This document shows, in pieces, positions 2,924 to 28,255 of a stretch of DNA of 31,846 nucleotides. A program made the position numbers and the translations under genes. How positions within the stretch are numbered: the first letter of the stretch is position 1; each line of letters starts with the position of its first letter. The stretch is from Candidatus Diapherotrites archaeon CG08_land_8_20_14_0_20_30_16 (GTDB taxonomy: Archaea; Iainarchaeota; Iainarchaeia; Iainarchaeales; 0-14-0-20-30-16): assembly GCA_002779075.1 (NCBI GenBank), contig PEXK01000040.1:1-31846 (forward strand), read 5' to 3'. The notes under the pieces were generated by a model. That model saw only the letters and a program-made list of their open reading frames with translations, ran no database searches and was not told the DNA's origin.

Positions 2924-5099
2924 TTTGGTTTTCTTTTTCTTTCTTTAGTTTTGGTGTTTTAATTGATGCTTTTGGTTTTATTATATTTGCTTTTTGTAAA
3001 TTTATTTCTGTTCCTTTTTTCTCATTTCTTGCTTCTTCTTTGTTCAAAGAAGAATTGGATAGATCTTTTTTTGAAAAAGAATTTTGATAATCTTTATTTG
3101 TGCTACAACTAGGATTAATGCAAAATTCGACAGGATCTTTCTTTAGGGGCTGTTTTAATTGTATTAATGGTGCCTTACACAGTTCGCAAACCTTGTTTGT
3201 GAAGGTGATTTCGCCTTTTTGTGGCAAAGGATAACTTTGTGTACATTTTGGAAATTGAGAACAACCAACAAATATTTTTCCTAACTTTGATGTTCTTTTA
3301 ACTAGGTTTGCATTACATCTCTGACATTTACCGACAACATTTGCCTGTTGGTGTGTTGCTCTTATAGTTGTTGATATTTCTTTTTTATTTTTGTAAAGGG
3401 TATCTAAAATTTCTAATAACATTTTTTTAGAATCTTCAACGACTTTGTCTTTTGTCAGGTCGCCTTCTTCTATCTGATTCATTTCATCTTCTAATTTTGC
3501 AGTCATTTCTGGCGACACAATGTGTTTTGCATAATCTTCTAATGTTTTTACTACTGTTTTTGCCATATTGCTCGGCTTGATTTGCTTTTTCCCAGAAATA
3601 TAATCTCTGCTATATAATTTTTGCAAAATTGCAGGTCTTGTAGATTTCGTTCCCAAATTCAATTTTTCCATTAGTTTGATTAGTGTACCTTGTGAATATC
3701 TTACGGGGGGTTGTGTTTTTTTAGACAACAATTCTTTGTTTGTTATAGGCAAGATCTCGCCAATAACTAATTCTGGCAGAACTGCTTCTTTTTGATTAGT
3801 ATAAGGATAAATATCTAACCAGCCTCTATCAATAAAAATTAGGCCTTTTGAAATAAATACTTCCCCATTAACATCGAACTCCGCGTTTGTTGTTAATGCT
3901 TTTGCATCTTTGTATAAAGTTGCTAAAAAATGACCGACAATTAGTTTGTACACTTTCCAATCTTCTGGATGTAATTTTTCTTTTGGCGCTAAAGTTACTG
4001 GGTGAACTGGCGGATGATCTTTTGTTGTAACTCCTTTGGAAGGAGTTATTTTTTCTTGTTTTAATATTTTGTCAATTGCTTTATCAAATTCTGATCCTCT
4101 CAAATTAACCAATATTTTATCGATGTTTACCCCTACGTATGTTTGATTATCTGTTCTTGGATAACTAATGTATCCCCGCATGTAAAGATTTTCCGCAATT
4201 TCCATTGCTTTCATAGCATCAACATTTAGATTTGCAGCAAAACGCAAAAAATCAGTAGTGTTAAGAGGCACTGGCCTCTTTATTGCCATTTCTTTTTTTT
4301 CTAAATTGATTACTTTTGCTTTCTGCCCTATATTGGAAAATATTTTTTCTGCTTCTGCTTTGTTTAAAATTCTTCTTTTTTTGTATTCTGCTTCAAATTT
4401 TGTTTTTTGTTTTTCTAACTCTAGTTTTATTTCCCAATAAGGGCTTGATTTAAAATTTTCAATTTCTAATTCCCTTTCGACAATTTTTGCCAAAGTTGGG
4501 CTTTGCACTCTTCCAACACTCAAAAAATCTTTGCCAACTAAACCTGTGCTAGTACTTAAAAACCGTGTTAAAATTGCACCCCAGTACAAATCTATTTCTC
4601 TTCTTGAATCTGCAGCGTCAGCAAGTTTTTCATTTAAAGGAATTAATTTGCTGAATGCATTATTCATTTCATCAGAAGTTATTGCTGAAAAATATGCTCT
4701 TTCTACTTTCGTTTTGGATTTTTTAGCTAAAATTATTTTTACTGCTTCTCTTCCTATTGATTCCCCTTCCCTATCAGCATCTGTTGCAATTATTAATCGT
4801 TTAGCTTCTGTTTCATTCAAGCTTCTAACAATTCCTGGTTGTGTTGTTTTGTAAAATAATGCATCGCTTTTAATAATGTTTTTTAAATCAGTATACCAAC
4901 TAGAATATTCCTTTTTGAAATCAACATCTGTTATGTGTCCTTTCAAAGGAATTAAAATACACCTCCCTAAAAAAGAGGTATCAAATTCAAAAGTAGTTTG
5001 CCATTTTTCTCTGTTTGTTTTCATTTTTCCATCAGATAAAATTTGTGCAATGCTTTGTCCAGCAATAGGTTTTTCTGAAATAATTATAGTATCATACAT
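2907..5099 (-). CDS. topA: Type IA DNA topoisomerase (TopA/Topo III-like) with C-terminal zinc ribbons
   Basis: Toprim motif IIATDADREGESIG. Active-site region GYISYPRTDNQ. C-terminal Cys4 ribbons (CQRCNANL...GCSQFPKC; CELCKAPL...CINPSC) followed by a Lys-rich tail. The ORF track starts at GTG 5108, but ATG 5099 (MYDTIIISEKP) fits Toprim N-termini better. Confidence 0.9.
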   Translation of the reverse strand: MYDTIIISEKPIAGQSIAQILSDGKMKTNREKWQTTFEFDTSFLGRCILIPLKGHITDVDFKKEYSSWYTDLKNIIKSDALFYKTTQPGIVRSLNETEAKRLIIATDADREGESIGREAVKIILAKKSKTKVERAYFSAITSDEMNNAFSKLIPLNEKLADAADSRREIDLYWGAILTRFLSTSTGLVGKDFLSVGRVQSPTLAKIVERELEIENFKSSPYWEIKLELEKQKTKFEAEYKKRRILNKAEAEKIFSNIGQKAKVINLEKKEMAIKRPVPLNTTDFLRFAANLNVDAMKAMEIAENLYMRGYISYPRTDNQTYVGVNIDKILVNLRGSEFDKAIDKILKQEKITPSKGVTTKDHPPVHPVTLAPKEKLHPEDWKVYKLIVGHFLATLYKDAKALTTNAEFDVNGEVFISKGLIFIDRGWLDIYPYTNQKEAVLPELVIGEILPITNKELLSKKTQPPVRYSQGTLIKLMEKLNLGTKSTRPAILQKLYSRDYISGKKQIKPSNMAKTVVKTLEDYAKHIVSPEMTAKLEDEMNQIEEGDLTKDKVVEDSKKMLLEILDTLYKNKKEISTTIRATHQQANVVGKCQRCNANLVKRTSKLGKIFVGCSQFPKCTQSYPLPQKGEITFTNKVCELCKAPLIQLKQPLKKDPVEFCINPSCSTNKDYQNSFSKKDLSNSSLNKEEARNEKKGTEINLQKANIIKPKASIKTPKLKKEKENQTINNF

Positions 5100-9519: not shown

Positions 9520-10626
9520 TCACTTTCTAAACTTATCTATATTTTCAATTATTAGTTTTTTGCATTTTTCAAATTCTTTTTTCTTAACAAAGAATCCTAC
9601 AGCAACAGAATGTCCGCCACCAAAAAGGGTTTTGCATTCTGTTTTTAAAAATTCGATCAGTTTAACTAAGTCATAATCTTTTGATCTGCAAGATGCTTGA
9701 TACCCTTTTTCTTTTTTGTTTTCAAAAAATACAAATCTTGTTGAGGAGGAATAAATTACTTCTAAATTATCTTGAATTGCTGGTTTGAATTTTCTATCTT
9801 TAGATGTTAATTCTAAAATAATTGTGTTATTAAATATTTCCGCATTATCAAAAATTGTTTGCATTCTTTTTATTAATCTTTTTTTGTATTTGTTATATTC
9901 TTTGTAAAATTCTTCTGGCAAAATAACTATTGCCTTCAAATCAATTTTTACATTATTCAACATTCTTTCTAATACCCAATCTGCACCAAATTTTTCTGTA
10001 CTTAAATTAGAATATATTGGCAATAAAATTGATAATGGTGGTAAAATTTGACCACTATTTACAAAATATTCTTCATTGTTGATATCAACATTTAAATAAG
10101 GTAAAGAACCAATAACAAACCAGTCTGCTAGTGCTCCAGAAAAAGCTATTTTTTGTAATAATTTGTCATTGCCAAAAATATATCTATATGCACAATAAAC
10201 CAAAGCACTTGCCGAACAATTTGGTTTACTTTTCAAGTCATCATCATACATAGGGTTTATCAATAAATTTACTTCTTGATCTGCCTTGTGATGATCAATA
10301 ACACAAATATAGCTATCTTGCAAAAAAGAATAATCATCCATCGACATATCTAATAGAAAAATGTATTTGTGTTGTGCAATTTGTTTTTGTGTTTCTGGTT
10401 GATTTTTTATTTGCCCTCGAAAATCGTGTTCAGTAAACATACAAAAGAACTCTTTTTTGTATTCAAAACCAAATTTTTCCAATAATCTGCAGAAAATAAA
10501 AGCAGAAGTTACGCCGTCAGGATCATTATCTGCAATTATCAATATTTTTTCTCCTTTCTTAATGTTTTGTAATACTTTTTTTAGTTCTTCAAATTTTTCT
10601 AACATAGGAATATAATTCTCAACCAT
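9520..10626 (-). CDS. DHH/DHHA1-family phosphoesterase (RecJ/NrnA-like nuclease)
   Basis: DHH motifs ILIIADNDPDGVTSA and VIDHHK. DHHA1 motif GGGHSVAVGF. The ORF track GTG is at 10635; ATG 10626 is preferred. It lies 6-15 nt downstream of the pelota stop. Confidence 0.75.
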   Translation of the reverse strand: MVENYIPMLEKFEELKKVLQNIKKGEKILIIADNDPDGVTSAFIFCRLLEKFGFEYKKEFFCMFTEHDFRGQIKNQPETQKQIAQHKYIFLLDMSMDDYSFLQDSYICVIDHHKADQEVNLLINPMYDDDLKSKPNCSASALVYCAYRYIFGNDKLLQKIAFSGALADWFVIGSLPYLNVDINNEEYFVNSGQILPPLSILLPIYSNLSTEKFGADWVLERMLNNVKIDLKAIVILPEEFYKEYNKYKKRLIKRMQTIFDNAEIFNNTIILELTSKDRKFKPAIQDNLEVIYSSSTRFVFFENKKEKGYQASCRSKDYDLVKLIEFLKTECKTLFGGGHSVAVGFFVKKKEFEKCKKLIIENIDKFRK

Positions 10627-10641
10627 AATTATCACTAAAAA

Positions 10642-11685
10642 TCAATAGTAAAGGAAAGCTGCAATACCAGATATGTTATCTAATATTCTGCCAGATTCTG
10701 TTTCTGAATTTACAATGTGATATTCTATCTTATTATCTTCTAACATCAATAAAAGGTTTTTAATTTCTGTGAAGTTTTCATGAAAGAATTTGTCACTAAT
10801 TAATACTGATTGCAATGCATTTCTATCAAGAGCTTCTTTAATTTGTACTAAACCATAAGTAACGGGTTTGTCTTTGGCCAAATGTAACAAGAAGGTATCT
10901 ATTAATTCCGAATCTTTTTGAACATTTATATTGCCCAATACTTTTTTTACTTGCCCACCTTTTATTAACTCGTTAATTCCTGAAATTCCAGGGCTTGATG
11001 CTTGTGTAAAAATAAACCTATCCAAAAATTTTTTATCAGAAAATTTAGTTTGAATATATTTGTGCAGGTTTTCTTTTTCAAAACCAGGACCGCCAACAAT
11101 GCACTTATCAAAATCGCTGTTAGTCAATACTTTTAAAATAGAATCAAAATAGCTTTGCCTAGAAATCTCTTTTGCGTGAGGATCTCTTTTGCCCGAACCC
11201 TTAAAAAAGATCTCTACAACAACATCATATCTTGTTTCATTTAAAGTAGCTATAACACAAGAATCATCATCTAAAACAGCCAAATAAATCCTAGCATTTA
11301 ATTTTTCTTGAAGGGCTTTGTCCAAAATCTTTTTCTGTATTGCAAGTAAAGACTGTTTATTTATTGATAATCTATCACCAACATGAAAATCAAAAGAATG
11401 GTGTTGCCCAACAACAACATATTCTGGAGGCGAACCAGAATCTATAATGCCTATTACTTTTAAACACTGTAAATTTAAATCTAATTTTGTGTTTTTTGCG
11501 TCTAATTTGATAAAAACAGACTTTTTTTCAGAATCGTCAGAATCTTGTGCTCTAAATCTTCTTGTCGTACGACTTCCTACTTTGTCGCCTTCAGAAATGA
11601 ACAAACTTAAGGCCCAAAGATCATCAATATTTTCAATTCCTAATTCGAAAAACAAGTCTTTAAAATTCTTTTTATATACTTTCAT
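10642..11685 (-). CDS. pelA: Pelota (Dom34 homologue), ribosome rescue / mRNA surveillance factor
   Basis: The N-terminus IENIDDLWALSLFISEGDKVGSRTTRR is characteristic. The central and C-terminal eRF1-like domains are present (IVGGPGFEKENL, SSPGISGINELI). Length 347 aa. Confidence 0.9.
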   Translation of the reverse strand: MKVYKKNFKDLFFELGIENIDDLWALSLFISEGDKVGSRTTRRFRAQDSDDSEKKSVFIKLDAKNTKLDLNLQCLKVIGIIDSGSPPEYVVVGQHHSFDFHVGDRLSINKQSLLAIQKKILDKALQEKLNARIYLAVLDDDSCVIATLNETRYDVVVEIFFKGSGKRDPHAKEISRQSYFDSILKVLTNSDFDKCIVGGPGFEKENLHKYIQTKFSDKKFLDRFIFTQASSPGISGINELIKGGQVKKVLGNINVQKDSELIDTFLLHLAKDKPVTYGLVQIKEALDRNALQSVLISDKFFHENFTEIKNLLLMLEDNKIEYHIVNSETESGRILDNISGIAAFLYY

Positions 11686-11715: not shown

Positions 11716-11736
11716 GACTATTTATTGAGATTATTT

Positions 11737-13518
11737 ATGTATAAAAGAAGAATTGCAATTATTGATTCAAAAAAGTGTAGACCTAAACTCTGTGGCGAAG
11801 TTTGTATTAAAGTTTGTCCTATGAATAGAATGGCGAAAAATGTAGTATACTATGAAGGTGAAGCAATAAAAATAGACGAAACATTATGTTCTGGTTGCGG
11901 AATTTGTGTTATAAAATGCCCTTTTGACGCAATAAAAATAATAAATCTAGAACTAATACTGGACGACCCTTTACATCAATATGGTGAAAATAGATTTAGA
12001 TTGTTTAGATTTATAGACCTCCCTAAAAAACAGAATATCGGCGTTATTGGTCAAAATGGTATAGGAAAATCAACAATAATTAAAATTCTTGCAGGCCAAA
12101 TAATTCCTAATCTTGGAAAGTATAAAGAAAAAGCAGATTATAAAAAAGTTGTTGAAAATTTTAAAGGTAAAGAAATACAAAAAACATTTATCAATTTAAA
12201 TAAGAGCTTGTTTGAGTTTGCATATAAGCCACAAAATATTGAACTTATTCCCGAGGTTTTTAATGGCAAAGTTGTTGATCTGTTGAAAAAATCAGATAAA
12301 AACAATAAATTAAATGAAATAGTTGAATTATGGGATTTAAAAAACCTATTGCAAAAGGATATTAATATACTGTCTGGTGGCGAACTGCAAAAAGTAGCAA
12401 TAGTCTCAACAGTATTGAAAAATGCAAATGTTTCTTTTTTTGATGAGCCTAGTTCATTTTTAGATATTAAACAAAGATTCTTGTTTGCTACAAATCTTCA
12501 AAATTCTTCTAAAGAAGAAACAAGAAATGAAAAGAAAAATCAAGAAACTAAGGAAAAGACAAATATTATTGTTGAACATGATTTAGCAATTTTAGATTAT
12601 ATTGTTGATTATTGTCACATTCTTTTTGGTCAACCACATGCATACGGAATTTGTTCGCACATTAAAAATACAAATGTGGCTATAAACGAATTTTTATTTG
12701 GCTTTATTAAGGATGAAAACCTAAGGTTTAGGGATTATGAATTAAATATAAATTATACTCCTAGCAATATAAAAACAGGAGATGTTTTGTTTGATTATTC
12801 TGAAAACAAAGTTAAATTAGGAAAATTTACATTAGAATATCCACAAGACGAAATACATAATAATCAAATTATTGGAATAATTGGAGAAAATGGCACAGGA
12901 AAAACAACCTTTATAAAAAATATTTTAGAAAAATCCAATAACTATGACAATTTGAAGTTTGCGTACAAACCACAAAGTCTTTTACTTCGAAAACAAGAAA
13001 TGGAATTGCCAGTTATGTTTTATTTGAAAGATTGTGATCAAGATCTTTTAAAAGATCTTTGGAATAAATTAAACATTGAAAGAATAAAGATGTATAAGTT
13101 GGGTGAGTTAAATGGTGGAGATTTGCAAAAGGTAATTACAACAAAGGTTTTGGCCACTAATGCAAATGTTTATTTAATTGATGAGCCTAGTGCTTTTTTA
13201 GATGTTGAAGAACGATTGAATATTGGAAAAGCAATCAGAAATATAATTTTAGAAAAAAACAAAGTTGCATTTGTTGTTGACCACGACATTTTATTTTTGG
13301 ATTTTATATCAGATGCTATTCTGATGTTCTCAGGAACACCTGGCCAACAATGTCACGCATCAAATATTATGAACAAAAAAGAAGGCATGAACAAATTTTT
13401 GAAAATATTAAATATAACGTATAGAAAAGATCCAATAACTAAAAGACCTAGAATAAATAAACAAAATTCCAGCAAAGACAAAGACCAAAAACTTGCAGGA
13501 AACTATTATTCTTTTTAG
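11737..13518 (+). CDS. abce1: ABCE1 / RNase L inhibitor (Rli1), ribosome recycling ATPase
   Basis: N-terminal twin 4Fe-4S motifs CRPKLCGEVCIKVCP and CSGCGICVIKCP. Two ABC cassettes are present. Cassette 1: GQNGIGKST, LSGGELQKV, FFDEPSSFLD. Cassette 2: GENGTGKTT, LNGGDLQKV, YLIDEPSAFLD. A K/E-rich insert (SSKEETRNEKKNQETKEKTN) sits in NBD1. The ORF track TTG is at 11725; ATG 11737 (MYKRRIAIID) is preferred. Confidence 0.93.
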   Translation: MYKRRIAIIDSKKCRPKLCGEVCIKVCPMNRMAKNVVYYEGEAIKIDETLCSGCGICVIKCPFDAIKIINLELILDDPLHQYGENRFRLFRFIDLPKKQNIGVIGQNGIGKSTIIKILAGQIIPNLGKYKEKADYKKVVENFKGKEIQKTFINLNKSLFEFAYKPQNIELIPEVFNGKVVDLLKKSDKNNKLNEIVELWDLKNLLQKDINILSGGELQKVAIVSTVLKNANVSFFDEPSSFLDIKQRFLFATNLQNSSKEETRNEKKNQETKEKTNIIVEHDLAILDYIVDYCHILFGQPHAYGICSHIKNTNVAINEFLFGFIKDENLRFRDYELNINYTPSNIKTGDVLFDYSENKVKLGKFTLEYPQDEIHNNQIIGIIGENGTGKTTFIKNILEKSNNYDNLKFAYKPQSLLLRKQEMELPVMFYLKDCDQDLLKDLWNKLNIERIKMYKLGELNGGDLQKVITTKVLATNANVYLIDEPSAFLDVEERLNIGKAIRNIILEKNKVAFVVDHDILFLDFISDAILMFSGTPGQQCHASNIMNKKEGMNKFLKILNITYRKDPITKRPRINKQNSSKDKDQKLAGNYYSF

Positions 13519-17991: not shown

Positions 17992-18193
17992 TTAAGAAAA
18001 CATCACAATTATATAAAATCCAACCCATTTATATACCTTTCCTTTTATCCTTTTTTCTTTGAAAACAAAAAATAGTAGAATAGAAGGGTGTCCCAAAGGG
18101 TTTGCCTCAAAGAAAGATTTAAATATCTTGCTGTTTTCTATAATCTATAAAATATTAAGTTCGAATATTTGTAAGAAGGACGAAGGTGATTAT

Positions 18194-18478
18194 ATGTATA
18201 AATATTCTATTGCAAAACAGTTAGCATCCAAAAGGGTAATCACCAACAGAGGGGACGAAGTTGGAAAAGTGTTAGATATCTTAGTGGACGAACTGTCAGG
18301 TACTTTGGAATATCTTCTAGTAGAGATAGATATTGATTCAAAAGTAACAAGAACATTAAAATTAGATCAGAAAAACAGAATAGTTAAAATACCTTATTCT
18401 GCAGTATCTGCTGTTAGTGATGTGTTTATTGTTGATGAAAAACAAATTATTATCGATAACGAAGAACTTATTCAATAA
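18194..18478 (+). CDS. PRC-barrel domain protein
   Basis: LASKRVITNRGDEVGKVLDILVDELSGTLEYLLVEI is a PRC-barrel pattern. ATG 18194 is preceded by GGTGAT (18185..18190). The ORF-track TTG start at 18059 adds 45 non-conserved-looking residues. Confidence 0.7.
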   Translation: MYKYSIAKQLASKRVITNRGDEVGKVLDILVDELSGTLEYLLVEIDIDSKVTRTLKLDQKNRIVKIPYSAVSAVSDVFIVDEKQIIIDNEELIQ

Positions 18479-19604
18479 GAAAAACAATCTTTTGTTTTTC
18501 TTTTTCTATTTTTTTTAATTTTATTTTTCTTCCTTTTTCATAGTCTTTTATCTCTTTTTCAATACTTTCAATATTCTTTTTTTCTTCTAATCCGTTTTTA
18601 ACAATTATTTTAATTTGATTCAAATAATCAAAGTTTTGGTAAATACAATCACCAATAATTTTATATTTTGCTGTTTTTTCATTCAGTTTTTCTTTTGCTC
18701 CTTTTTGTTGGTTTAAAGTATATTCAATATTTTGTTTTTCTTTTTCAAAATCTTTTTTATTTTTATTTTTGGACTGTAAAAATTCAGGTTTTAAGATCAA
18801 TTCTTCATATATTTGATTTAAATTATAATTTATTTCCTGCAAAAAGGGAAGATTTAAATTATAAAAAGTAACTTTCTTCTCCAGAATTATTATTTTTGTT
18901 TTTTCATAAAAAAGCAATGAAAATATTTTTTTAATTCCCACAACAACTTTTTTATAAGTCTTAAAATCAAATACGTTTTTGTCATTTTTTTCACTTTCTA
19001 AATATTTTTCAATTAGTATTGGACTTATGTTACAATTTTTAACAATATTTGACACCATATTTTTTTTAGAATTTATATCATCCTCTTTAGGAACATAAGA
19101 CAATACATTTTTTACATTTGTTGGAGGAATATATTTTTCTCCTCTTGCGATAGTTCTATCTTTCCACTTTTCTTTATATAAACAAAGAACAATCTTGTCA
19201 GAACCATCAGTTAAAATAATATTATTACTAGAAAAGAATTCAAAATATAGTTTGTAATCTTGAAAAATGAACAAAATAAGTTTTTCTAAATTTAGTTGGA
19301 GTATATTCATTATTTGTTTATTTTCTAAAATCCCATTCATTTCCTTTAAAAAGCCCTTAGTTTCACTAGTTTCAACAATAAGATTGGTAATTCCTGCAAA
19401 ACCACCACCAACAATTAAATCTTTATTTTCTTTGTCTTTCCTTATTCGTATTTTTATAAATAAGTTATCCGCATTTACTTTTTGTATCTTTTGTGGACGC
19501 CCAAACACCAATTCTTTTTTTAAAAACCATTCCAAATACATGAAATTTGTGTTATTAAATTCTATTTCTTTGCCTTTAAATTCCTCTAGATTTATATTAG
19601 ACAT
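18468..19604 (-). CDS. N-terminal half of an NFACT protein (Rqc2/NEMF/RqcH/FbpA family): NFACT-N domain plus first coiled-coil arm
   Basis: The NFACT-N signature runs FLKEMNGILENKQIMNILQLNLEKLILFIFQDYKLYFEFFSSNNIILTDGSDKIVLCLYKEKWKDRTIARGEKYIPP (compare the family pattern F..LRK.L.g..i..i.Q...dRi..f.f....L..ElF..GNiiL.d....I......R.i..g..Y.pP). A K/E-rich helical region follows. The ORF ends at 378 aa with no NFACT-R/DUF814 domain. Its start overlaps the HAD gene stop by 13 nt. Confidence 0.8.
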   Translation of the reverse strand: MSNINLEEFKGKEIEFNNTNFMYLEWFLKKELVFGRPQKIQKVNADNLFIKIRIRKDKENKDLIVGGGFAGITNLIVETSETKGFLKEMNGILENKQIMNILQLNLEKLILFIFQDYKLYFEFFSSNNIILTDGSDKIVLCLYKEKWKDRTIARGEKYIPPTNVKNVLSYVPKEDDINSKKNMVSNIVKNCNISPILIEKYLESEKNDKNVFDFKTYKKVVVGIKKIFSLLFYEKTKIIILEKKVTFYNLNLPFLQEINYNLNQIYEELILKPEFLQSKNKNKKDFEKEKQNIEYTLNQQKGAKEKLNEKTAKYKIIGDCIYQNFDYLNQIKIIVKNGLEEKKNIESIEKEIKDYEKGRKIKLKKIEKEKQKIVFLIE

Positions 19605-20197
19605 TTTAATTCCTTAAAATCTTTAATTATTGCATCAGGATTATATTTGATCAAATTATTTTTCGAATACAAAACATCTATCTTTCCAATGGTTTTTGTT
19701 TTTGCATTTTTGCCAAATAAAATATCATTAATATTATCTCCAATGTATATTATATTTTTTGGTCTTAATTTATATTGTTTAATAATTTTATTTAAACTTT
19801 CGGGATTTGGTTTTGGATGATTATAATCTTTTGGGGTAAGCACAAAATCAAACAAACACAAGCTATCTTTTAAAGTCAAAATTGCAACTCTTTGTATTGA
19901 ACTAGTAATAATTCCCAAAATATACTTCTTTTTTAATTTTTTTAACAAATCTTTTGTGTCTTGAGTTACTACTTCTCTTCTTTTGATTTCTTTTTGGTAT
20001 TTCTTTTCCCAAAGGTGATTGTACAACACAATTTTCCTTTCAGACAAATTAGGAAAAGCATTTTTGATTAAAATTTTTGAAGGCGGTCCGAAAAACTGCA
20101 CAAAGAACCTTTTTGGTTTGTGAAATAGTTTTGCAAACAAATCAAGTTCTATATTTGTGACATTTACTATTGTACCATCCATATCAAAAACAAGCAT
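19592..20197 (-). CDS. HAD-superfamily phosphatase (PGP/beta-PGM-like subfamily)
   Basis: Motif I FDMDGTIVN, motif II LGIITSS, motif III KPNP, motif IV GDNINDILFGKNA. ATG 20197 avoids the overlap with aRF1 that the ORF-track start at 20269 creates. Confidence 0.8.
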   Translation of the reverse strand: MLVFDMDGTIVNVTNIELDLFAKLFHKPKRFFVQFFGPPSKILIKNAFPNLSERKIVLYNHLWEKKYQKEIKRREVVTQDTKDLLKKLKKKYILGIITSSIQRVAILTLKDSLCLFDFVLTPKDYNHPKPNPESLNKIIKQYKLRPKNIIYIGDNINDILFGKNAKTKTIGKIDVLYSKNNLIKYNPDAIIKDFKELKCLI

Positions 20198-20231
20198 TTT
20201 TGTATCTTTCTTCAGCTTTGCCAAATTGTCT

Positions 20232-21443
20232 TTAATATCGTAGGATTGCACCAACACCACCAAAAGCATTATAAAATTGTTGACCTTCGCTTGTATCTCT
20301 AGATATAAACATAACTTCTGTACCTGTTTTTTTTGCTAATTCATAAAAATATTCGCCAGCATCCAATTCTTCAATTTCTTCTATATCTTTTGAATTACAG
20401 CTAGGACAAACAGAGGTGTCAGTATTTGCAAAGAAGCTTTTGTTACAGGAATTACATTCAAAGCTCGCTTGATCTATTTTTAGGTCTTCTGACACCAGAA
20501 CTTTGGACGCTCTACCTTCTTTTATTGCTTGTACAACTTCATTAAGCCCATAAGTCGCTAAGCTGGTTTTTACAACTTTTTCAAAAAAATTAGCAATCTC
20601 TTGTTTCTCTTTCACCAATTCGCTCTCTTTTAACATATCCTCTGACAAATCTATAATTTCTTTTATACCTGATTCATCTGTGTAGGTATTATCTAAAAAA
20701 CCAATAATTTTATCTTTTAATCTATAATCTAATAATCCTCTTTCTACCATTTTCTTTTTTGTCGATCCTGGGCCCCCAAAAACAAATCCCTTAAATTTGC
20801 CCTCTTGAACTAAAGGCACAAAAATTTCATTTATTTTTTCAGATATTCGCGTATAAAACTCTTGTGCTGCTTCTTCTCTTAAATGCTCGAACCGGGTAGC
20901 TGATTGTCCTCCCGCTTTAATCTTTCCTGGTACATTAGAATTTAACCTGGCAACGATTCTATATGCTTTACCTATCAAAGTAGCCAAGGTAGCTTCTCTA
21001 TTATCTATTGCAACAATACCATAAATATTGTTTGGAGCTAACATTTCTAACAGAGGGTCCAAATAAAAATCAGAATCACACCTATATAATTTTACCCTCA
21101 GATCTTTAACAGGAATAACATGAAACATTTGAATGTCTGTTCTTCCTTCAAATTCAGATACATTTCCACAAAACAATGCTAGACCTGTTTTTGGTATTGT
21201 GAAATCAGTAACTTTCAAATACTGAATCAATTTTCTTAAAGCGCCTTGGACATTCTTTCTTGTAATTGCAGATTTTATGTTTGAAGATTGACTTACTTCA
21301 TTTGTCAATTGATTCATAACTCCTGAGCGATCAGTATTGTTAGGGATATACAAAGATATTAACTCAGTATGTTTTCCTTTGTAATTTCGCAATTCTTTCA
21401 ACTTGCGCTTAAAAATCTCTGTTTCTGCATCCACAAAATTCAC
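20232..21443 (-). CDS. prf1: Peptide chain release factor aRF1
   Basis: NIKS stop-codon recognition motif (SSNIKSAITRKN). YxCxxxF motif (LYRCDSDFY). GGQ motif (KAGGQSATRFEHLREE). A Cys4 insertion sits in domain C (CNSCNK...CPSCNS). There is no ATG near the 5' end. Candidate starts are GTG 21443 or GTG 21434; the latter lies 5 nt after GGTGA. Confidence 0.92.
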   Translation of the reverse strand: MNFVDAETEIFKRKLKELRNYKGKHTELISLYIPNNTDRSGVMNQLTNEVSQSSNIKSAITRKNVQGALRKLIQYLKVTDFTIPKTGLALFCGNVSEFEGRTDIQMFHVIPVKDLRVKLYRCDSDFYLDPLLEMLAPNNIYGIVAIDNREATLATLIGKAYRIVARLNSNVPGKIKAGGQSATRFEHLREEAAQEFYTRISEKINEIFVPLVQEGKFKGFVFGGPGSTKKKMVERGLLDYRLKDKIIGFLDNTYTDESGIKEIIDLSEDMLKESELVKEKQEIANFFEKVVKTSLATYGLNEVVQAIKEGRASKVLVSEDLKIDQASFECNSCNKSFFANTDTSVCPSCNSKDIEEIEELDAGEYFYELAKKTGTEVMFISRDTSEGQQFYNAFGGVGAILRY

Positions 21444-22557: not shown

Positions 22558-25500
22558 TTATAATTTAGCCCTTTTCTTTAGGTTTGATGCTTTGATTTGG
22601 TCTAGTAGCATTTCTTTTTCTGTATTGTATACAACCTCTTTTATTTTGTCAACACTATCAATGTTTGCAGAAATAGAGTCTATGCCAATTTTAACTAATT
22701 CTTTAACCATTTCCGGGTTAGATCCTGCCTGGCCACAAATTGATGTTCTTACCTTCGCAGGCTTACAAAATGAAATAACGTGCGCAATTTGTTTCAATAT
22801 GCTTGGGTGTAGTTCAGTAAACCATTTTTGGATCTTTTCATTATTTCTATCCAATCCTAGAGTTAATTGAGTTAAATCATTTGTTCCAAAACTTACAAAA
22901 TCTATTTTTGCATCAATATAATCCTCAATTGTTAATGAACAACCAGGAGTTTCAACCATAATTCCAAAGAAACAATCTTTGTGAGGTTTCAATCCAACAC
23001 TTTCTGCAATCCTTTTTGCTTCTATATATTCTTTAACGTGCTGTGTAAAAGGAATCATAATGCCAATGTTTCTGTATCCCTTAGCAATAATATTTTTTAT
23101 TGCTCTGAATTGTGTTTTTAATATTTCTGGTTCATCAATATCTCTTCTTATGCCATGCCAACCTAGCATTGGATTGTCCTCTTTAGGTTCTGTTTCTCCA
23201 CCTTTCAAATTTCTATATTCGTCTGTTCGAGCATCAAAAGTTCTATAATAAACAGGTTTGTTTTTGAACAATTTCATAATTTTTTCTAATTCTGTTTCTA
23301 AAAGTTTTTGTAATTCTTTTGATTTTCCTTTATGAACCATATAATAAGGATGTTCTTTTGCAGCAGTTAAAATATGTTCTGCACGCATTAATCCAATACC
23401 ATCAGGATTTGTTTCAAATGCTCTTTGTGCAGCATCACTAAATGCTAAATTTACTTTTACTTTTGTTGTTGTTACAAAATCAAAAGATTTTAAATTCAAC
23501 TCATTATGTTTTTCAACAATATTGTCTTTATGAACAACTACTCCTTTGTAAATCTTTCCTTTATTTGCATCAACAGTAATAATTTCTTTGTCCCTTAACA
23601 CCTTTGTTGCAGTTTCTGTTCCAACAATGCAAGGAATTCCTAATTCACGAGAAACAATAGAAGCATGACAGGTTATTCCTCCTTCATCAGTAACAATAGC
23701 AATTGCTTTTTTCATTTGTGGTACCATATCAGGAGTTGTCATTTTAGTTACCATAACATCTCCTGTTTTTACTTTATCCAGTTCTTTAATCGAATGAACA
23801 ACAATTACAGGGCCTGATTTTATTCCAAAACTTGCACCTAACCCTGATAAAATTGCTTTTGCATCAATTGTTTCTGAACTTTTTTGTTTATTATCTGTAG
23901 TTAAAGTAGTTATAGGTCTTGATTGAACAACATATAATTTATTTTTTTCGATCGCCCATTCAATATCTTGTGGTTTATCATAATGTTTTTCAATTGCATT
24001 GCCGATTTTTGCATATTGCAGAACAACATTATCTGAGATTTTTTGCTTTGCTTGCAAAGCAATTGGTACATTCACTTTTTTTGTTGTTCCTTTTATATCT
24101 CGAATCAGTTTCCAAGATTGTTTGCTTATTATCTTTGATTTTATTTTCATTGTTTTTTTATCAATAATAAAAGTATCTGGTGTTACACTTCCCGAAACTA
24201 TAGCCTCTCCTAAGCCATAACAAGCTTCAATTACAATTTCTGATAGATTGTTGTTTGTAGGATTTGCAGTAAACATTATTCCTGAAATTTCTGAAGCTAC
24301 TTGTTTTTGAACAACAACTGCTAGTTTTACCTTTTCTATTGGAAAGCCTTGCTTGCGCCTATAAAATATAGCCCTTGGATTAAATAAAGAGGCCCAACAT
24401 TTTTTTACATTCTCCAGTAACTTTTCTTTACCCAAAATATTTAAATAAGTATCTTGTTGTCCCGCGAAACTCGCACTATTGTGGGTTATAATCCCTCCTA
24501 TTCCTGATGCGAAATTTTCTACTTCGGGGACAGTGAAATCATACACTTGCCCAGTGTATTGTACTTCTTCTATACTTTTGATTTTATCCCATCTTACACT
24601 TCCGGTAAAAAAATCTTTATAATCAGTTATTCCCAGTTGATTCATTTCTTTGGAAAAAGATTTCTGGCTGAGTGTTCCGCTAATTAAACCTTTGTTCCAA
24701 GGGATTTGATATTTTTTAAATTTTCCCATTATATCATAATAAACATATCGTTCTACCTCTTTACTAGGCAATTCTTGTTCATAATATGCACGGTGGCATG
24801 AATTGCAATAATATCTTTCTTTTTTCTTATATTTACTAGATTTATTTACAACTGCTTTACATTGTGGGCACAACCTAACTTTTATGGCTGTTTTTGGTAG
24901 GGTAGAATCATATTGTGCTTTAATTTTAGTTGTAAGCTCAGGGGTTATAGAAATACAATGCATAAATTCAGGATGGCTACTTTTTTGTTCTTGACTATTA
25001 ATTAATTTATTCAAGTTTTTTAATTTATTTTTATCAACAAACCCTATTAGATTTTTAAATTTTTCCCCTTCGCGGGCGGGAATAAGGATTCGGTAATGGT
25101 CATGCCATTTTAAATTTTTGCTTTTATATTTTTTAAGGGAAAATTCTATATTTAAAATTTCCAATAATTTTATAAGTCCCCCCGTTAACAATAAAGAAGT
25201 TGAAGAATATCCAATTCCATTTGGTTCTATTCCACCATCTTCATCAAAAGCGCCTTTAAGAAATTCTCCAATTAGTTCTTTTTTCCAACCAAATACAAAC
25301 TCTGGCACCCTCTTTACTAAACTTAATTTGCCTTTCCCTTTTTGTTTAAGAGGCACCCCAGCAACAGTATGTAAGAATTTAACTAAGGCTTTACAATATA
25401 CTTGCAAACTATATTTATTGATTTTTACATTTGTGTTTATGCCTAAGTGTTTAATGAATTTTATTGATTTGCTTCTTATTTTTGAATTTGAGTTAGTAAT

Positions 25501-26427
25501 TGTTATACAATTATTTTTGTAAGTCGAGCCTTCTGCACAATATATTCCTAAAAAATAGGCTAAATCTTTTGTAAATTTTATTTTTTGTGGTAAAGGTTGT
25601 TGTGTCTTCCAATTATTAGCATTGTTTTTAATATATATTTTGTTGTTTTGTTCTACTATATCCTTTCCTGTAATGATATTTAATACGTCAATTTCTGTAT
25701 TTTTACAATTTAATTCTGGAAGGTGGTTGATTGTAGGAACTTTTTCTCCGCCTTTAAGATCAGAAACTTTAACTGTCTTTTGCGTTAAATTATTTTCATC
25801 TAAAATTATAAGAGAATGATTTGGAGAAATTGTTACTTCTCTACCACTTACTGTTTTGATTTTATATAATTTATCAGAATTTGCTGGGTGTTTATATATT
25901 GCGCTTACTTTTTTCCATACTATCTCATTGTTATATAAAGAAGGTATTTCAACTACGTTTTTGTTTGGATTGAGACCATCAAACTCTTTCATTAAACGAT
26001 AAAATGGGTTGCCATTTATCTTTGTTAGTATATGCTCATTTTCTGAGATGCTTGGCAAGTCTTCAGCTGTTGCTGAACTTCTTACCGCTACCAAACAATC
26101 TCCGCCTAATTTTATATATGCTTCAACAATTTTCTTTTTCAAATCTGGTTTTATTGGTTCATTCAGAATAATTTTTTTTATTTCTGCAGCTTTTTCATTC
26201 AATTTAGTTATATTGTTGACATCAATATTTTTTTCAATATCTTCTATTTTTTTAAGAATTCTGGTTTCTAATGCATTTTTTTTATAAGTATATGCAGTTA
26301 TAACAAAACCCCCAGGTATGGGAAAATTGTGGTTGTACATTTCCCCTAAATTAGCGCCTTTTCCGCCAACTTCTGGTATTTGATTTTTATTTATTTCGTT
26401 AAACCACAAGATCTCTTTATTTTGCAT
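22558..26427 (-). CDS. ppsA: Phosphoenolpyruvate synthase (PpsA), interrupted by an in-frame intein
   Basis: ATP-grasp motif EVGGKGANLGEM. VAVRSSATAEDLP and SASFAGQQDTYLN are separated by 525 aa. Phosphohistidine domain GGITCHASIVSRELGIPCIVG. PEP-utilising barrel FVSFGTNDLTQLTLGLDR. The extein totals 764 aa. An AGGTG lies 5 nt upstream of the ATG and overlaps the upstream stop codon. Confidence 0.93.
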   Translation of the reverse strand: MQNKEILWFNEINKNQIPEVGGKGANLGEMYNHNFPIPGGFVITAYTYKKNALETRILKKIEDIEKNIDVNNITKLNEKAAEIKKIILNEPIKPDLKKKIVEAYIKLGGDCLVAVRSSATAEDLPSISENEHILTKINGNPFYRLMKEFDGLNPNKNVVEIPSLYNNEIVWKKVSAIYKHPANSDKLYKIKTVSGREVTISPNHSLIILDENNLTQKTVKVSDLKGGEKVPTINHLPELNCKNTEIDVLNIITGKDIVEQNNKIYIKNNANNWKTQQPLPQKIKFTKDLAYFLGIYCAEGSTYKNNCITITNSNSKIRSKSIKFIKHLGINTNVKINKYSLQVYCKALVKFLHTVAGVPLKQKGKGKLSLVKRVPEFVFGWKKELIGEFLKGAFDEDGGIEPNGIGYSSTSLLLTGGLIKLLEILNIEFSLKKYKSKNLKWHDHYRILIPAREGEKFKNLIGFVDKNKLKNLNKLINSQEQKSSHPEFMHCISITPELTTKIKAQYDSTLPKTAIKVRLCPQCKAVVNKSSKYKKKERYYCNSCHRAYYEQELPSKEVERYVYYDIMGKFKKYQIPWNKGLISGTLSQKSFSKEMNQLGITDYKDFFTGSVRWDKIKSIEEVQYTGQVYDFTVPEVENFASGIGGIITHNSASFAGQQDTYLNILGKEKLLENVKKCWASLFNPRAIFYRRKQGFPIEKVKLAVVVQKQVASEISGIMFTANPTNNNLSEIVIEACYGLGEAIVSGSVTPDTFIIDKKTMKIKSKIISKQSWKLIRDIKGTTKKVNVPIALQAKQKISDNVVLQYAKIGNAIEKHYDKPQDIEWAIEKNKLYVVQSRPITTLTTDNKQKSSETIDAKAILSGLGASFGIKSGPVIVVHSIKELDKVKTGDVMVTKMTTPDMVPQMKKAIAIVTDEGGITCHASIVSRELGIPCIVGTETATKVLRDKEIITVDANKGKIYKGVVVHKDNIVEKHNELNLKSFDFVTTTKVKVNLAFSDAAQRAFETNPDGIGLMRAEHILTAAKEHPYYMVHKGKSKELQKLLETELEKIMKLFKNKPVYYRTFDARTDEYRNLKGGETEPKEDNPMLGWHGIRRDIDEPEILKTQFRAIKNIIAKGYRNIGIMIPFTQHVKEYIEAKRIAESVGLKPHKDCFFGIMVETPGCSLTIEDYIDAKIDFVSFGTNDLTQLTLGLDRNNEKIQKWFTELHPSILKQIAHVISFCKPAKVRTSICGQAGSNPEMVKELVKIGIDSISANIDSVDKIKEVVYNTEKEMLLDQIKASNLKKRAKL
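24478..26052 (-). mobile_element. Intein (525 aa) with a LAGLIDADG homing endonuclease domain, inserted in ppsA
   Basis: N-terminal splice junction EDLP/SISENEH (Ser1). Block B is TISPNHSLII. The LAGLIDADG motifs are LAYFLGIYCAEGS and IGEFLKGAFDEDGG. Block F is QVYDFTVPEVENFASGIGG. Block G and the +1 residue are IITHN/S. Removing the element restores EDLPSASFAGQQ, which matches the conserved PpsA motif. Confidence 0.9.
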
Positions 26428-26435
26428 AGAAACAC

Positions 26436-27182
26436 CTACAAATTATAATCATCAATATTTTTTACGACAATCCCATTGTCTGTTATTTCCATTGGGTGAA
26501 TCTCGCTAGAATGTTTTGTTGCACGCATTTTTCTTATCAACAAAGTTCTATTAATTCCTTGTATTCCGGTATCCAAATATTTTAAAACAAAAACTCCGTC
26601 TGCAACATACTCTTCTACACCATATTTGCTATATTTGTTTGTTGATGATTCCAATTCTGAAACCAATAACGCAGTTAGACCTAATTTAGAAAAAACATAT
26701 ATCATTTCAAGTATTGCTTCTCTTATGTGATCTGAACCATCAAAATATATTCCCAAAGTTGCAATAGAATCTATGACTATTCTTTTAGCATTAGTTTCTT
26801 TTACTGCTCTAATTATTTCTAAAAGCAGTTTTTTGTAGTCAAAAGTATTTTCAGAATATGCAGTAGTTTCACCACTATCTATTCCTAATCTACTTACTGT
26901 AGCATCAAACAAAACTACCTTTTTTTCATCTTCCATTCTTTTGATATTCCAACCAAATTTTAACATATCTTCTCTTATTAATTCTGGTCTTTCATCCAAA
27001 GTAACATATATTCCTGGTTCGCCGTACAAATATGCTCCTTGATACAAAAATTGCATTGAAAAAATAGTTTTTCCCGAGCCTGTTGCACCAGAAACTAAAA
27101 AAGACCTTTTTTTTGGCAAACCGTTTTCGATTAATTCATCCAAACCAGGAACTCCTGTAGGAATTCTGTTTATAATATTCAT
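26436..27182 (-). CDS. KaiC/RadA-like RecA-superfamily ATPase (single domain)
   Basis: IPTGVPGLDELIENGLPKKRSFLVSGATGSGKTIFSMQFLYQG contains the Walker A motif. RIVIDSIATL is Walker B-like. Start at ATG 27182 (MNIINRIPTG), preceded by GGAGATGGTG. Alternative starts are ATG 27233 and GTG 27299. Its stop codon overlaps the ppsA SD. Confidence 0.8.
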   Translation of the reverse strand: MNIINRIPTGVPGLDELIENGLPKKRSFLVSGATGSGKTIFSMQFLYQGAYLYGEPGIYVTLDERPELIREDMLKFGWNIKRMEDEKKVVLFDATVSRLGIDSGETTAYSENTFDYKKLLLEIIRAVKETNAKRIVIDSIATLGIYFDGSDHIREAILEMIYVFSKLGLTALLVSELESSTNKYSKYGVEEYVADGVFVLKYLDTGIQGINRTLLIRKMRATKHSSEIHPMEITDNGIVVKNIDDYNL

Positions 27183-27409
27183 AACACCATCTCCAAAAAT
27201 ATTATTTTCAATAATATATTTTCTCGAAGTCATCAAAAGCCCATCTTTGCAGTTTAAATATACAAAACTTAAAAAAAGTTTTGATATTTTAACAGACACT
27301 TTACAAGTTCTTCAACCTTTGTAAAGCCAGATGCCATTTTGATGCCGGCAATAACCTATAAATATATAGTTAAGACATATATGTTATATAAATATAAAAA
27401 GGTTTTGTT

Positions 27410-28255
27410 ATGTTTCCTAAAAAAGAAGGGTCTATTGAATTTGAGATTAATATTAAGGACTCCATAAACGCATCTGCACAAAGATATTTTGATGATTATA
27501 AAAAAATAAAGAAAAAGCTCATAGGGTTGGATGTAGCAATAACAAATACTGAAAAGAGATTATCTGAATTGAATAATAAGAAAATCGAGGTTAAAGAAGT
27601 AATGGAAAAGAAAAAGCTTGCATGGTATGAAAAATATCATTGGGGTTATACTAGGGCTGGTTTTTTAATAATTGCTGGCAAAGATGCTCAAAGCAACGAA
27701 TACATTGTAAAGAATCATTTAGAGAAAGATGATTTGTTATTTCATAGTACAATTCAAGGGTCCGCGCATGTTATTTTGAAGAATGGGCAAAAAGCAGAGA
27801 AAGACGATTTAGAAGATTGCGCTTTGTTTGCTGCAATATTTTCAAAAGCATGGAATCTAGGGTTTGCATCTGTTGATGTTTATTTTGTTTATCCTGATCA
27901 AGTATCAAAAACACCAGAAACTGGAGAATATTTATCACAAGGCGCCTTTGTTATTAGGGGTGAGAAGAATTTCTTTAAAAAAGTACAAATGATTCTTTGT
28001 TTAGGAATTATAGATATCGAAACCCTAGACAAAAATACCAAAGGAAAAAGAGTTTTTATAGGCTCAGAGAAATTATTGTTGCAAAAAGGAATAAAAATAA
28101 TTGCAGAAATAATTCCTGGTAAAGACAAAAAAGGAGATATTGCAAAACAGATACACAATAGATTGGACAAAGAACAGAAAAAAGAAATTTCATTAGATGA
28201 GGTTATTCAATGTTTGCCCCCTGGAACCTTGGATTTCGTAAAAAAGAGAAAGTAA
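27410..28255 (+). CDS. C-terminal half of an NFACT protein: second coiled-coil arm plus NFACT-R (DUF814) domain and C-terminal region
   Basis: SINASAQRYFDDYKKIKKK matches the family pattern eNA..yf.kYKK.K. The DUF814 core is WYEKYHWGYTRAGFLIIAGKDAQSNEYIVKNHLEKDDLLFHSTIQGSAHVILKNG, continuing AALFAAIFSKAWNLGFASVDVYFVYPDQVSKTPETGEYLSQGAFVIRGEKNF. There is no NFACT-N domain. At 281 aa, it sums with the 378-aa N-half to 659 aa, the size of full-length archaeal NFACT proteins. Confidence 0.85.
   Translation: MFPKKEGSIEFEINIKDSINASAQRYFDDYKKIKKKLIGLDVAITNTEKRLSELNNKKIEVKEVMEKKKLAWYEKYHWGYTRAGFLIIAGKDAQSNEYIVKNHLEKDDLLFHSTIQGSAHVILKNGQKAEKDDLEDCALFAAIFSKAWNLGFASVDVYFVYPDQVSKTPETGEYLSQGAFVIRGEKNFFKKVQMILCLGIIDIETLDKNTKGKRVFIGSEKLLLQKGIKIIAEIIPGKDKKGDIAKQIHNRLDKEQKKEISLDEVIQCLPPGTLDFVKKRK

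Follow-up and report, generated by a model that had tools for sequence, protein, structure and literature searches.

A split gene for the ribosome quality control factor RqcH in a Diapherotrites archaeon and its conservation among DPANN archaea

The 31,846-nucleotide contig PEXK01000040.1 of Candidatus Diapherotrites archaeon CG08_land_8_20_14_0_20_30_16 (here called the window; archaeal, with a G+C content of 30%, and the reference for all positions given below unless another locus is named) encodes the ribosome quality control (RQC) factor RqcH, a relative of eukaryotic NEMF and Rqc2, in two separate pieces. A 281-amino-acid open reading frame (ORF) at 27410..28255 on the plus strand corresponds to the C-terminal part of an archaeal protein of the RqcH/NEMF family, and a 378-amino-acid ORF at 18468..19604 on the minus strand is the matching N-terminal part. 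Both parts are kept as separate proteins in many relatives, and the site at which the protein is interrupted is conserved across lineages. We consider it likely that the two products are the subunits of a heterodimeric RqcH, rejoined by a coiled coil and by completion of the beta sheet of the small M domain.

Gene halves and the break between them

A distance of 7.8 kb separates the two ORFs, hereafter the N-half and the C-half; they are read from opposite strands, and each has a start and a stop codon of its own. In the ORF listing of the window, the N-half ends with KIKLKKIEKEKQKIVFLIE and the C-half begins with MFPKKEGSIEFEINIK; since that listing opens each ORF at the first start codon past the upstream stop, the C-half cannot be extended upstream. 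Pfam identified a complete NFACT-R_1 domain (PF05670) in the C-half (amino acids 75 to 184, profile positions 1 to 112 of 112, E = 4.5e-33), and amino acids 7 to 70 of the same protein matched the end of the Pfam NFACT_N model (profile positions 367 to 430 of 456, the last 64 positions). Against the NCBIfam model of the archaeal family (NF041120, RqcH_arch), the C-half matched positions 380 to 644 of 645 (E = 8.5e-88, 295.7 bits) and the N-half positions 16 to 373 (E = 7e-31, 107.7 bits). The two matches are far beyond chance and complementary, with no overlap and a gap of only a few loop positions, and tblastn found one copy of each half within the window. Neither half reaches the equivalog cutoff of 400 bits, while the sum of their scores (403.4) lies just above it; these sub-cutoff scores explain why the public labels read “hypothetical” or “DUF814/NFACT RNA-binding domain-containing.” A preliminary description of this stretch, made from the sequence alone, had recognized a split NFACT/RqcH gene with this 281-amino-acid ORF as its C-terminal piece, and the ORF listing, the Pfam matches, and the complementary RqcH_arch matches bear it out.

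The domain layout was read from an AlphaFold model in which the N-half was fused directly to the C-half (the re-joined model), computed from an alignment of stand-alone halves and full-length homologs. Mean predicted local distance difference test score (pLDDT) was 93.3, and the predicted template modeling score (pTM) was 0.81. In re-joined numbering, the model places an NFACT-N sheet at residues 13 to 141 and HhH helices at 183 to 229; together these make up the NFACT-N and HhH region of the N-half (amino acids 1 to 261; 18822..19604, minus strand), a part that Foldseek matched to crystal structures of the N-terminal region (3doa, 5h3x, and 6pon). The first long coiled-coil helix, CC1, follows at 262 to 323 (18636..18821, minus strand; block pLDDT, 94 to 98). 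Beyond it, as assigned by DSSP and the junction alignment described below, the N-half encodes most of the M domain: two short helices (325 to 340 and 345 to 356) and two strands (361 to 367 and 372 to 378), the second of which consists of the final seven N-half residues, so that this part runs up to the stop codon (18471..18632, minus strand). The junction loop, MFPKKEG (379 to 385), is the sole dip in confidence (block pLDDT, 78). The C-half, which aligns to residues 453 to 651 of NEMF, then contributes a third M-domain strand at 386 to 392 (SIEFEIN, C-half amino acids 8 to 14; 27431..27451, plus strand), equivalent to LLVDVDL in NEMF. After this strand come the second coiled-coil helix, CC2, at 397 to 434 (C-half amino acids 19 to 56; 27464..27577, plus strand), the RNA-binding NFACT-R (DUF814) domain at 450 to 580 (the Pfam match itself spans 27632..27961, plus strand), and the archaeal C-terminal domain at 591 to 654 (C-half amino acids 213 to 276; 28046..28237, plus strand), which was modeled in strands and helices with pLDDT of 94 to 97 and is covered by the RqcH_arch match up to position 644. 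The C-half had been described beforehand as the segment leading into CC2, a complete NFACT-R core, and the C-terminal region, in agreement with Pfam, RqcH_arch, and the re-joined model.

All of NFACT-N/HhH, CC1-M-CC2, and NFACT-R are therefore present, with the CC-M element divided between the two genes. In the model, the break is not at the end of the first helix but at the distal tip of the CC-M arm, where it falls in a beta-hairpin loop of the small M domain. The same site emerged from a multiple alignment independent of the model: full-length proteins have a strand, an x-L-D-G turn, a second strand, and then KS..ENA..YY..AKK, and in this junction alignment every stand-alone N-half stops right past the first strand and every C-half begins right ahead of the second, with nothing missing. 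The preliminary description had put the break at the distal end of the coiled-coil element, where the junction alignment and the re-joined model also locate it, but its statement that the N-half ends right after the first long helix does not hold, because two helices and two M-domain strands follow CC1 before the C-half adds the third strand. It had also named the loss of essential elements between the halves as grounds for refutation; by RqcH_arch, junction alignment, re-joined model, and alignment to Protein Data Bank (PDB) structures alike, no such element is missing.

Over its whole length, the re-joined model was matched by Foldseek to human NEMF on the 60S subunit (9gy4_Z, E = 6.6e-33, TM-score 0.65), to yeast Rqc2 (8aaf_a), and to Bacillus subtilis RqcH (8s1u_H and 7aqc_R), and CCDC25 structures matched its NFACT-R part. 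Locating the break relative to RqcH, Rqc2, and NEMF had been proposed in the preliminary description: it falls in the M-domain hairpin, at I361/P362 of B. subtilis RqcH, the tip of a vestigial M hairpin (profile-to-PDB alignment), and at the hairpin tip of human NEMF, about residues 450 to 457. Cryo-electron microscopy work on RqcH has found that the CC-M tip touches uL11/H44 at the stalk base, a contact on which 50S binding depends.

Conservation of the split and the case for a two-subunit protein

Stand-alone orthologs of the C-half were 269 to 302 amino acids long, with identities down to 41%, and those of the N-half were 351 to 391 amino acids long, with identities down to 27%. Among the best 150 clusters matched by the C-half in an exhaustive search of 50%-identity representatives, about 40 were stand-alone C-halves, whose residue 2 to 5 aligned to query residue 10 to 13; the remaining clusters were proteins of 600 to 690 amino acids that were matched from about residue 355 to 400. 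For a census of the break site, a full-length profile of 649 positions was used to score all proteins collected. Among them were 159 stand-alone C-halves with a Met start, and 151 of these begin at profile positions 377 to 383 (mode, 382); the 7 stand-alone N-halves end at positions 376 to 383. Source labels of the split form include Diapherotrites, Nanoarchaeota, Woesearchaeota, and Altiarchaeales, on contigs of up to 1.39 Mb, and two proteins labeled “Nanoarchaeota archaeon” (P0205 and P0261) are stand-alone C-halves of 255 amino acids. At the level of species-representative genomes, 5 of 80 loci were split (one labeled Diapherotrites, three Altiarchaeota, and one unclassified); full-length genes were found at all Methanobacteriota, Halobacteriota, Thermoplasmatota, Thermoproteota, and Asgard loci not cut by a contig end, as well as at one Woesearchaeota locus. 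The split is a conserved state that has been kept under selection, and not damage or a recent pseudogene.

A few other arrangements came to light in the collected data. Three proteins (P0074, P0075, and P0157) have their start about 40 residues ahead of where C-halves usually begin and were considered as a second break site, which was rejected on evidence of artefact for two of them: the start of P0074 lies 25 nucleotides from a contig end, and P0075 lies on a contig with many frameshifts and several genes in fragments. Small genes abutting the C-half in three loci (L090, L091, and L092) were considered as cryptic N-half fragments and likewise rejected, having no match to the full-length profile. 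Locus L089 (4950..8780 of an ENA contig) is frameshift-ridden, with NFACT_N in three adjacent same-strand pieces, AdoMet synthase in four, and Mut7-C in two; it has the NFACT-Mut7-C-AMMECR1 neighborhood described by Burroughs and Aravind, which is absent beside either half in the window. Finally, a single assembly (GCA_030154545.1) holds two different N-half loci of similar synteny (L002 and L006; P0035 and P0037 are about 35% identical), which points to a mixed bin or to a record that combines two related organisms.

As subunits of one factor, the two products would derive from an ancestral single RqcH that was cut at the far tip of the CC-M arm, in the loop between the last two M-domain strands. 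The N-subunit would bring NFACT-N and HhH for tRNA binding, CC1, and both helices and the first two strands of the M domain. The C-subunit would add the third M strand, CC2, the NFACT-R domain that contacts the A-site finger, and the C-terminal region. If CC1 paired with CC2 in antiparallel orientation and the C-half strand completed the three-stranded M sheet, the full-length architecture would be restored, and the heterodimer would then bind a large ribosomal subunit with a stuck peptidyl-tRNA and drive C-terminal tailing. We infer from the evidence above that the halves associate physically and act in RQC.

Assembly in trans was explored with a circularly permuted chain, C-half followed by N-half, with no covalent junction and with alignment rows consisting of unpaired stand-alone halves only. 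In this model, the first strand of the C-half, CC2, CC1, and the two terminal N-half strands keep their secondary structure (block pLDDT, 81 to 89, with the C-half strand at about 88), with the C-half strand at amino acids 9 to 14 and CC2 again at 19 to 56. Strand assignment requires a pairing partner, so the permuted model is consistent with an M sheet that forms in trans; we take it as a weak indication of such assembly. Motif positions were assigned by profile alignment to B. subtilis RqcH. The DR motif (D97-R98 in B. subtilis) reads E107-K108 in the N-half, and EK is also found in the N-halves of the same clade (P0034, P0035, and P0037). The EIM motif (E121-I122-M123) reads E122-F123-F124, with the Glu retained, and of the NFACT-R DWH motif (D482/W484/H486) the C-half retains D108 and H112, with Leu at the W position, which is variable in archaea. 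Judged from these alignments, key residues appear to be retained or conservatively changed, which is evidence in line with retained function.

Several observations weigh against a two-subunit RqcH. The N-half is divergent enough to have no NFACT_N match in Pfam at E ≤ 0.1, and in the window clade Lys stands in place of the nearly invariant Arg of the DR motif. The high confidence of the re-joined model is owed largely to the full-length homologs in its alignment, and the global confidence of the permuted model was pLDDT 75 and pTM 0.42. Co-occurrence was examined in the window, in L001/L002, and in L003, where both halves are present; elsewhere the partner lies more than 10 kb away and was not located. 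Sequence change has also been much faster in the N-half than in the C-half: between the window and L001/L002 or L003, N-halves are 43% identical and C-halves 67 to 72%. A full-length paralog elsewhere in the genome would be beyond the reach of a 32-kb window.

Some of these observations would equally suit two independent proteins that never reassemble, the C-half being a solo coiled-coil and NFACT-R protein like CCDC25/Jlp2 and the N-half a separate tRNA- or RNA-binding factor. Their separate transcription units, the lack of linkage in most lineages, the unequal rates, and the pTM of the permuted model all accord with independence, and solo NFACT-R proteins do exist, CCDC25 structures being among those matched by the re-joined model. 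Yet a cut through a small three-stranded sheet leaves neither half with a complete M domain, and in either half on its own a long amphipathic helix, of 38 or 62 residues, would be left exposed. Moreover, the complementary terminal strands are kept on both sides in all lineages, and both halves are kept in every genome where both could be sought, and in both Nanoarchaeota. We regard independent proteins as improbable, and a heterodimer as the likely form of the protein.

Two further explanations can be given very little credence. Artefactual splits of rqcH are real in public data, as P0074 and L089 attest, and the arrangement in the window might in principle be a pseudogene or stem from frameshift, misassembly, or truncation at a contig end; however, the distance between the halves, their opposite strands, and their own start and stop codons speak against this, as do the recurrence of the arrangement in independent assemblies, the 159 stand-alone C-halves that start with Met at the same position on contigs as long as 1.39 Mb, and the intactness of both ORFs across divergence down to 27 to 41% identity. 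Just as unlikely is a covalent re-joining after expression, through RNA trans-splicing or through a split intein like that of Nanoarchaeum equitans PolB. DPANN archaea do use split inteins as well as trans-spliced tRNAs, and there is an intein in the neighboring ppsA gene, but neither half has an intein domain (Pfam finds NFACT domains only), the junction (...KIVFLIE in the N-half, MFPKKEG... in the C-half) has no intein motif, and the termini align residue for residue with the full-length hairpin, with no extra sequence.

Genomic neighborhood and origin of the split

The genes of the window run in the order N-half (-), HAD hydrolase (-), aRF1 (-), Dph2 (-), ppsA (-), KaiC-like (-), C-half (+), NifU (-), and NifS (-). 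Directly upstream of the N-half and co-directional with it are the HAD-hydrolase and aRF1 genes (19592..21443, minus strand; identified by ORFs and Pfam), which have the same order in L001, L002, L003, and L006. The HAD stop overlaps the N-half start by 13 nucleotides, so an aRF1-HAD transcript probably ends with the N-half; the C-half, divergent from the KaiC-like gene, is monocistronic. The halves thus lie in different transcription units, in agreement with the earlier claim that they are under separate transcriptional control and that the C-half diverges from KaiC-like/ppsA. Gene order of the window is kept in L001/L002 and in L003. In L006, a more distant relative whose N-half is 33% identical to that of the window, aRF1-HAD-N-half-PRC is kept, with no C-half within 10 kb, and the other lineages examined had no partner half within 10 kb and unrelated neighborhoods.

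Upstream of the C-half lies an AT-rich block (27355..27409, plus strand), identified by sequence and conservation, in which two TATA-like elements precede AAAGGTTTTGTT and the ATG. This block of about 55 nucleotides is kept in the window, L001 (about 9945..10000), L003 (about 9913..9967), and L008 (about 3420..3480); it abuts the ATG in the window and L001 and lies 33 to 66 nucleotides further upstream in L003 and L008. An AT-rich promoter of its own had been attributed to the C-half: the block is indeed present and conserved, and it is a plausible candidate for an archaeal promoter/leader, in a region shared with the divergent KaiC-like gene. A sigma-70 promoter/terminator scan is not informative for an archaeon. 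In the KaiC-like ORF (26436..27299, minus strand), the Pfam KaiC domain covers amino acids 46 to 281, and orthologs are 247 to 248 amino acids long; the listed GTG start is probably too far upstream, and the intergenic region to the C-half would then be about 230 nucleotides, not 110.

Several neighbors have features of their own. A convergent PRC-barrel gene (18059..18478, plus strand) overlaps the 3' end of the N-half with its own 3' end by 11 nucleotides, and this adjacency of N-half and PRC is kept in L001, L003, L006, and L007, reaching further than the rest of the synteny. The ppsA gene (22558..26427, minus strand), for phosphoenolpyruvate synthase, encodes 1289 amino acids and includes an intein (Intein_splicing, amino acids 156 to 650) with a LAGLIDADG_3 endonuclease (amino acids 386 to 462); its orthologs in L001 and L003 are 761 to 764 amino acids long and lack an intein. 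Pelota (10642..11685, minus strand) and ABCE1 (11725..13518, plus strand) form a divergent pair 5 to 8 kb from the N-half, aRF1 (20232..21443) is two genes upstream of it, and ABCE1 is within about 5 kb of the N-half in L006 too. With Pelota, ABCE1, and aRF1 near the N-half, factors for ribosome splitting, termination, and rescue are thus clustered.

The gene order and strands of the window fit a single inversion with one breakpoint inside rqcH, by which the split may have arisen in this lineage: undone, it would give KaiC-ppsA-Dph2-aRF1-HAD-rqcH, all in one direction. Counting against such an origin, none of the 87 loci searched for the flanking genes of the window held a full-length rqcH in the predicted pre-inversion neighborhood. 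On a broader scale, 178 C-regions were labeled as split or full length and placed on a neighbor-joining tree. Split forms cluster strongly on this tree, well above chance (13 parsimony steps versus a mean of 54 for shuffled labels) and are not cleanly monophyletic (10 to 21 steps across bootstraps). The tree fits a few ancient events, or a single one whose trace has been obscured by re-fusion, transfer, or weak resolution of the deep branches; recurrent cutting at one structurally permissive loop could conceivably have produced the pattern as well. More tentatively, a single ancient cut might have been inherited by a large part of DPANN (lineages labeled Diapherotrites, Woesearchaeota, Nanoarchaeota, and Altiarchaeales), which would then run RQC with an RqcH of two obligate subunits, its free termini lying at the tip that touches the uL11 stalk base; we hold this to be possible but rather doubtful.

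Implications and comparison with known systems

RqcH/NEMF occurs universally, and the CC-M arm is viewed as a hinged lever, reaching as far as the stalk base and opening in a scissors-like manner during translocation. A natural version cut at the CC-M tip would mean that covalent continuity there is dispensable, and it offers a ready two-piece system for studies of assembly and mechanism. For annotation, the consequence of halves that fall below the cutoff and are labeled hypothetical or DUF814 is that RQC seems absent from many DPANN genomes in which it is probably present. For evolution, a break site so sharply conserved over several DPANN groups is a candidate rare genomic change; were it to go back to a single ancient cut, it would help to test DPANN monophyly and the placement of Altiarchaeota. 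If, in addition, the two-subunit form were obligate, the supply of the subunits could be separately controlled, since the N-subunit probably shares a transcript with aRF1.

Two points lay outside the preliminary description: the split is ancient and widespread rather than local, and the family was already on record as split in Nanoarchaeota, under a name given before its RQC role was discovered. Podar et al. 2013 (PMC3655853) reported a “predicted RNA-binding protein” (arCOG01695/COG1293) as split in N. equitans (NEQ438/NEQ506) and Nst1 (Nst1_176/Nst1_251), at the same site in both Nanoarchaeota, with the gene intact in all other archaea then known. COG1293 is the RqcH family, and Nst1_176 and Nst1_251 both belong to arCOG01695 (COG01293). 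The nanoarchaeal case and the window thus have in common the gene family, two unlinked genes for the N and C parts, and a reduced DPANN genome. They differ in lineage, the window coming from Candidatus Diapherotrites, and the 2013 report made no link to RQC and gave no structural break position. Our literature search found no account of the structural break position, of a spread well beyond Nanoarchaeales, or of an RQC link for the split gene, and a survey of archaeal gene fusion and fission (PMC11237513) does not mention the RqcH family.

With full-length RqcH (NF041120; B. subtilis, 7aqc and 7as8; NEMF and Rqc2, 9gy4 and 8aaf), the halves taken together share the order NFACT-N, HhH, CC1, M, CC2, NFACT-R. 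They resemble archaeal RqcH and eukaryotic NEMF/Rqc2 in having a globular M domain and in the superposition of the re-joined model on NEMF and Rqc2, and the motif positions appear to be kept or conservatively changed. The window protein differs in consisting of two polypeptides cut in the M-domain hairpin, each scoring below the 400-bit cutoff, and in reading EK for DR. Eukaryotic CCDC25/Jlp2, the solo NFACT-R proteins, are similar to the C-half in that a short coiled coil and NFACT-R stand on one stand-alone polypeptide. CCDC25, however, was born by partial duplication and coexists with an intact NEMF, whereas the C-half is the sole NFACT-R copy seen in the window and keeps an M-domain strand and the full CC2, the elements that would pair with the N-half.

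Other split genes of DPANN archaea (reverse gyrase, GatE, Lhr helicase, AlaRS, and Dph2) likewise occur as two unlinked genes cut where reconstitution in trans is plausible, and such genes have been read as a by-product of genome reduction and rearrangement. By contrast, the cut in rqcH does not separate domains but runs through a small one, which caps a coiled-coil hairpin, and its site is the same across several DPANN phyla rather than confined to one lineage. That exact break position and the breadth of its distribution are what is new here.

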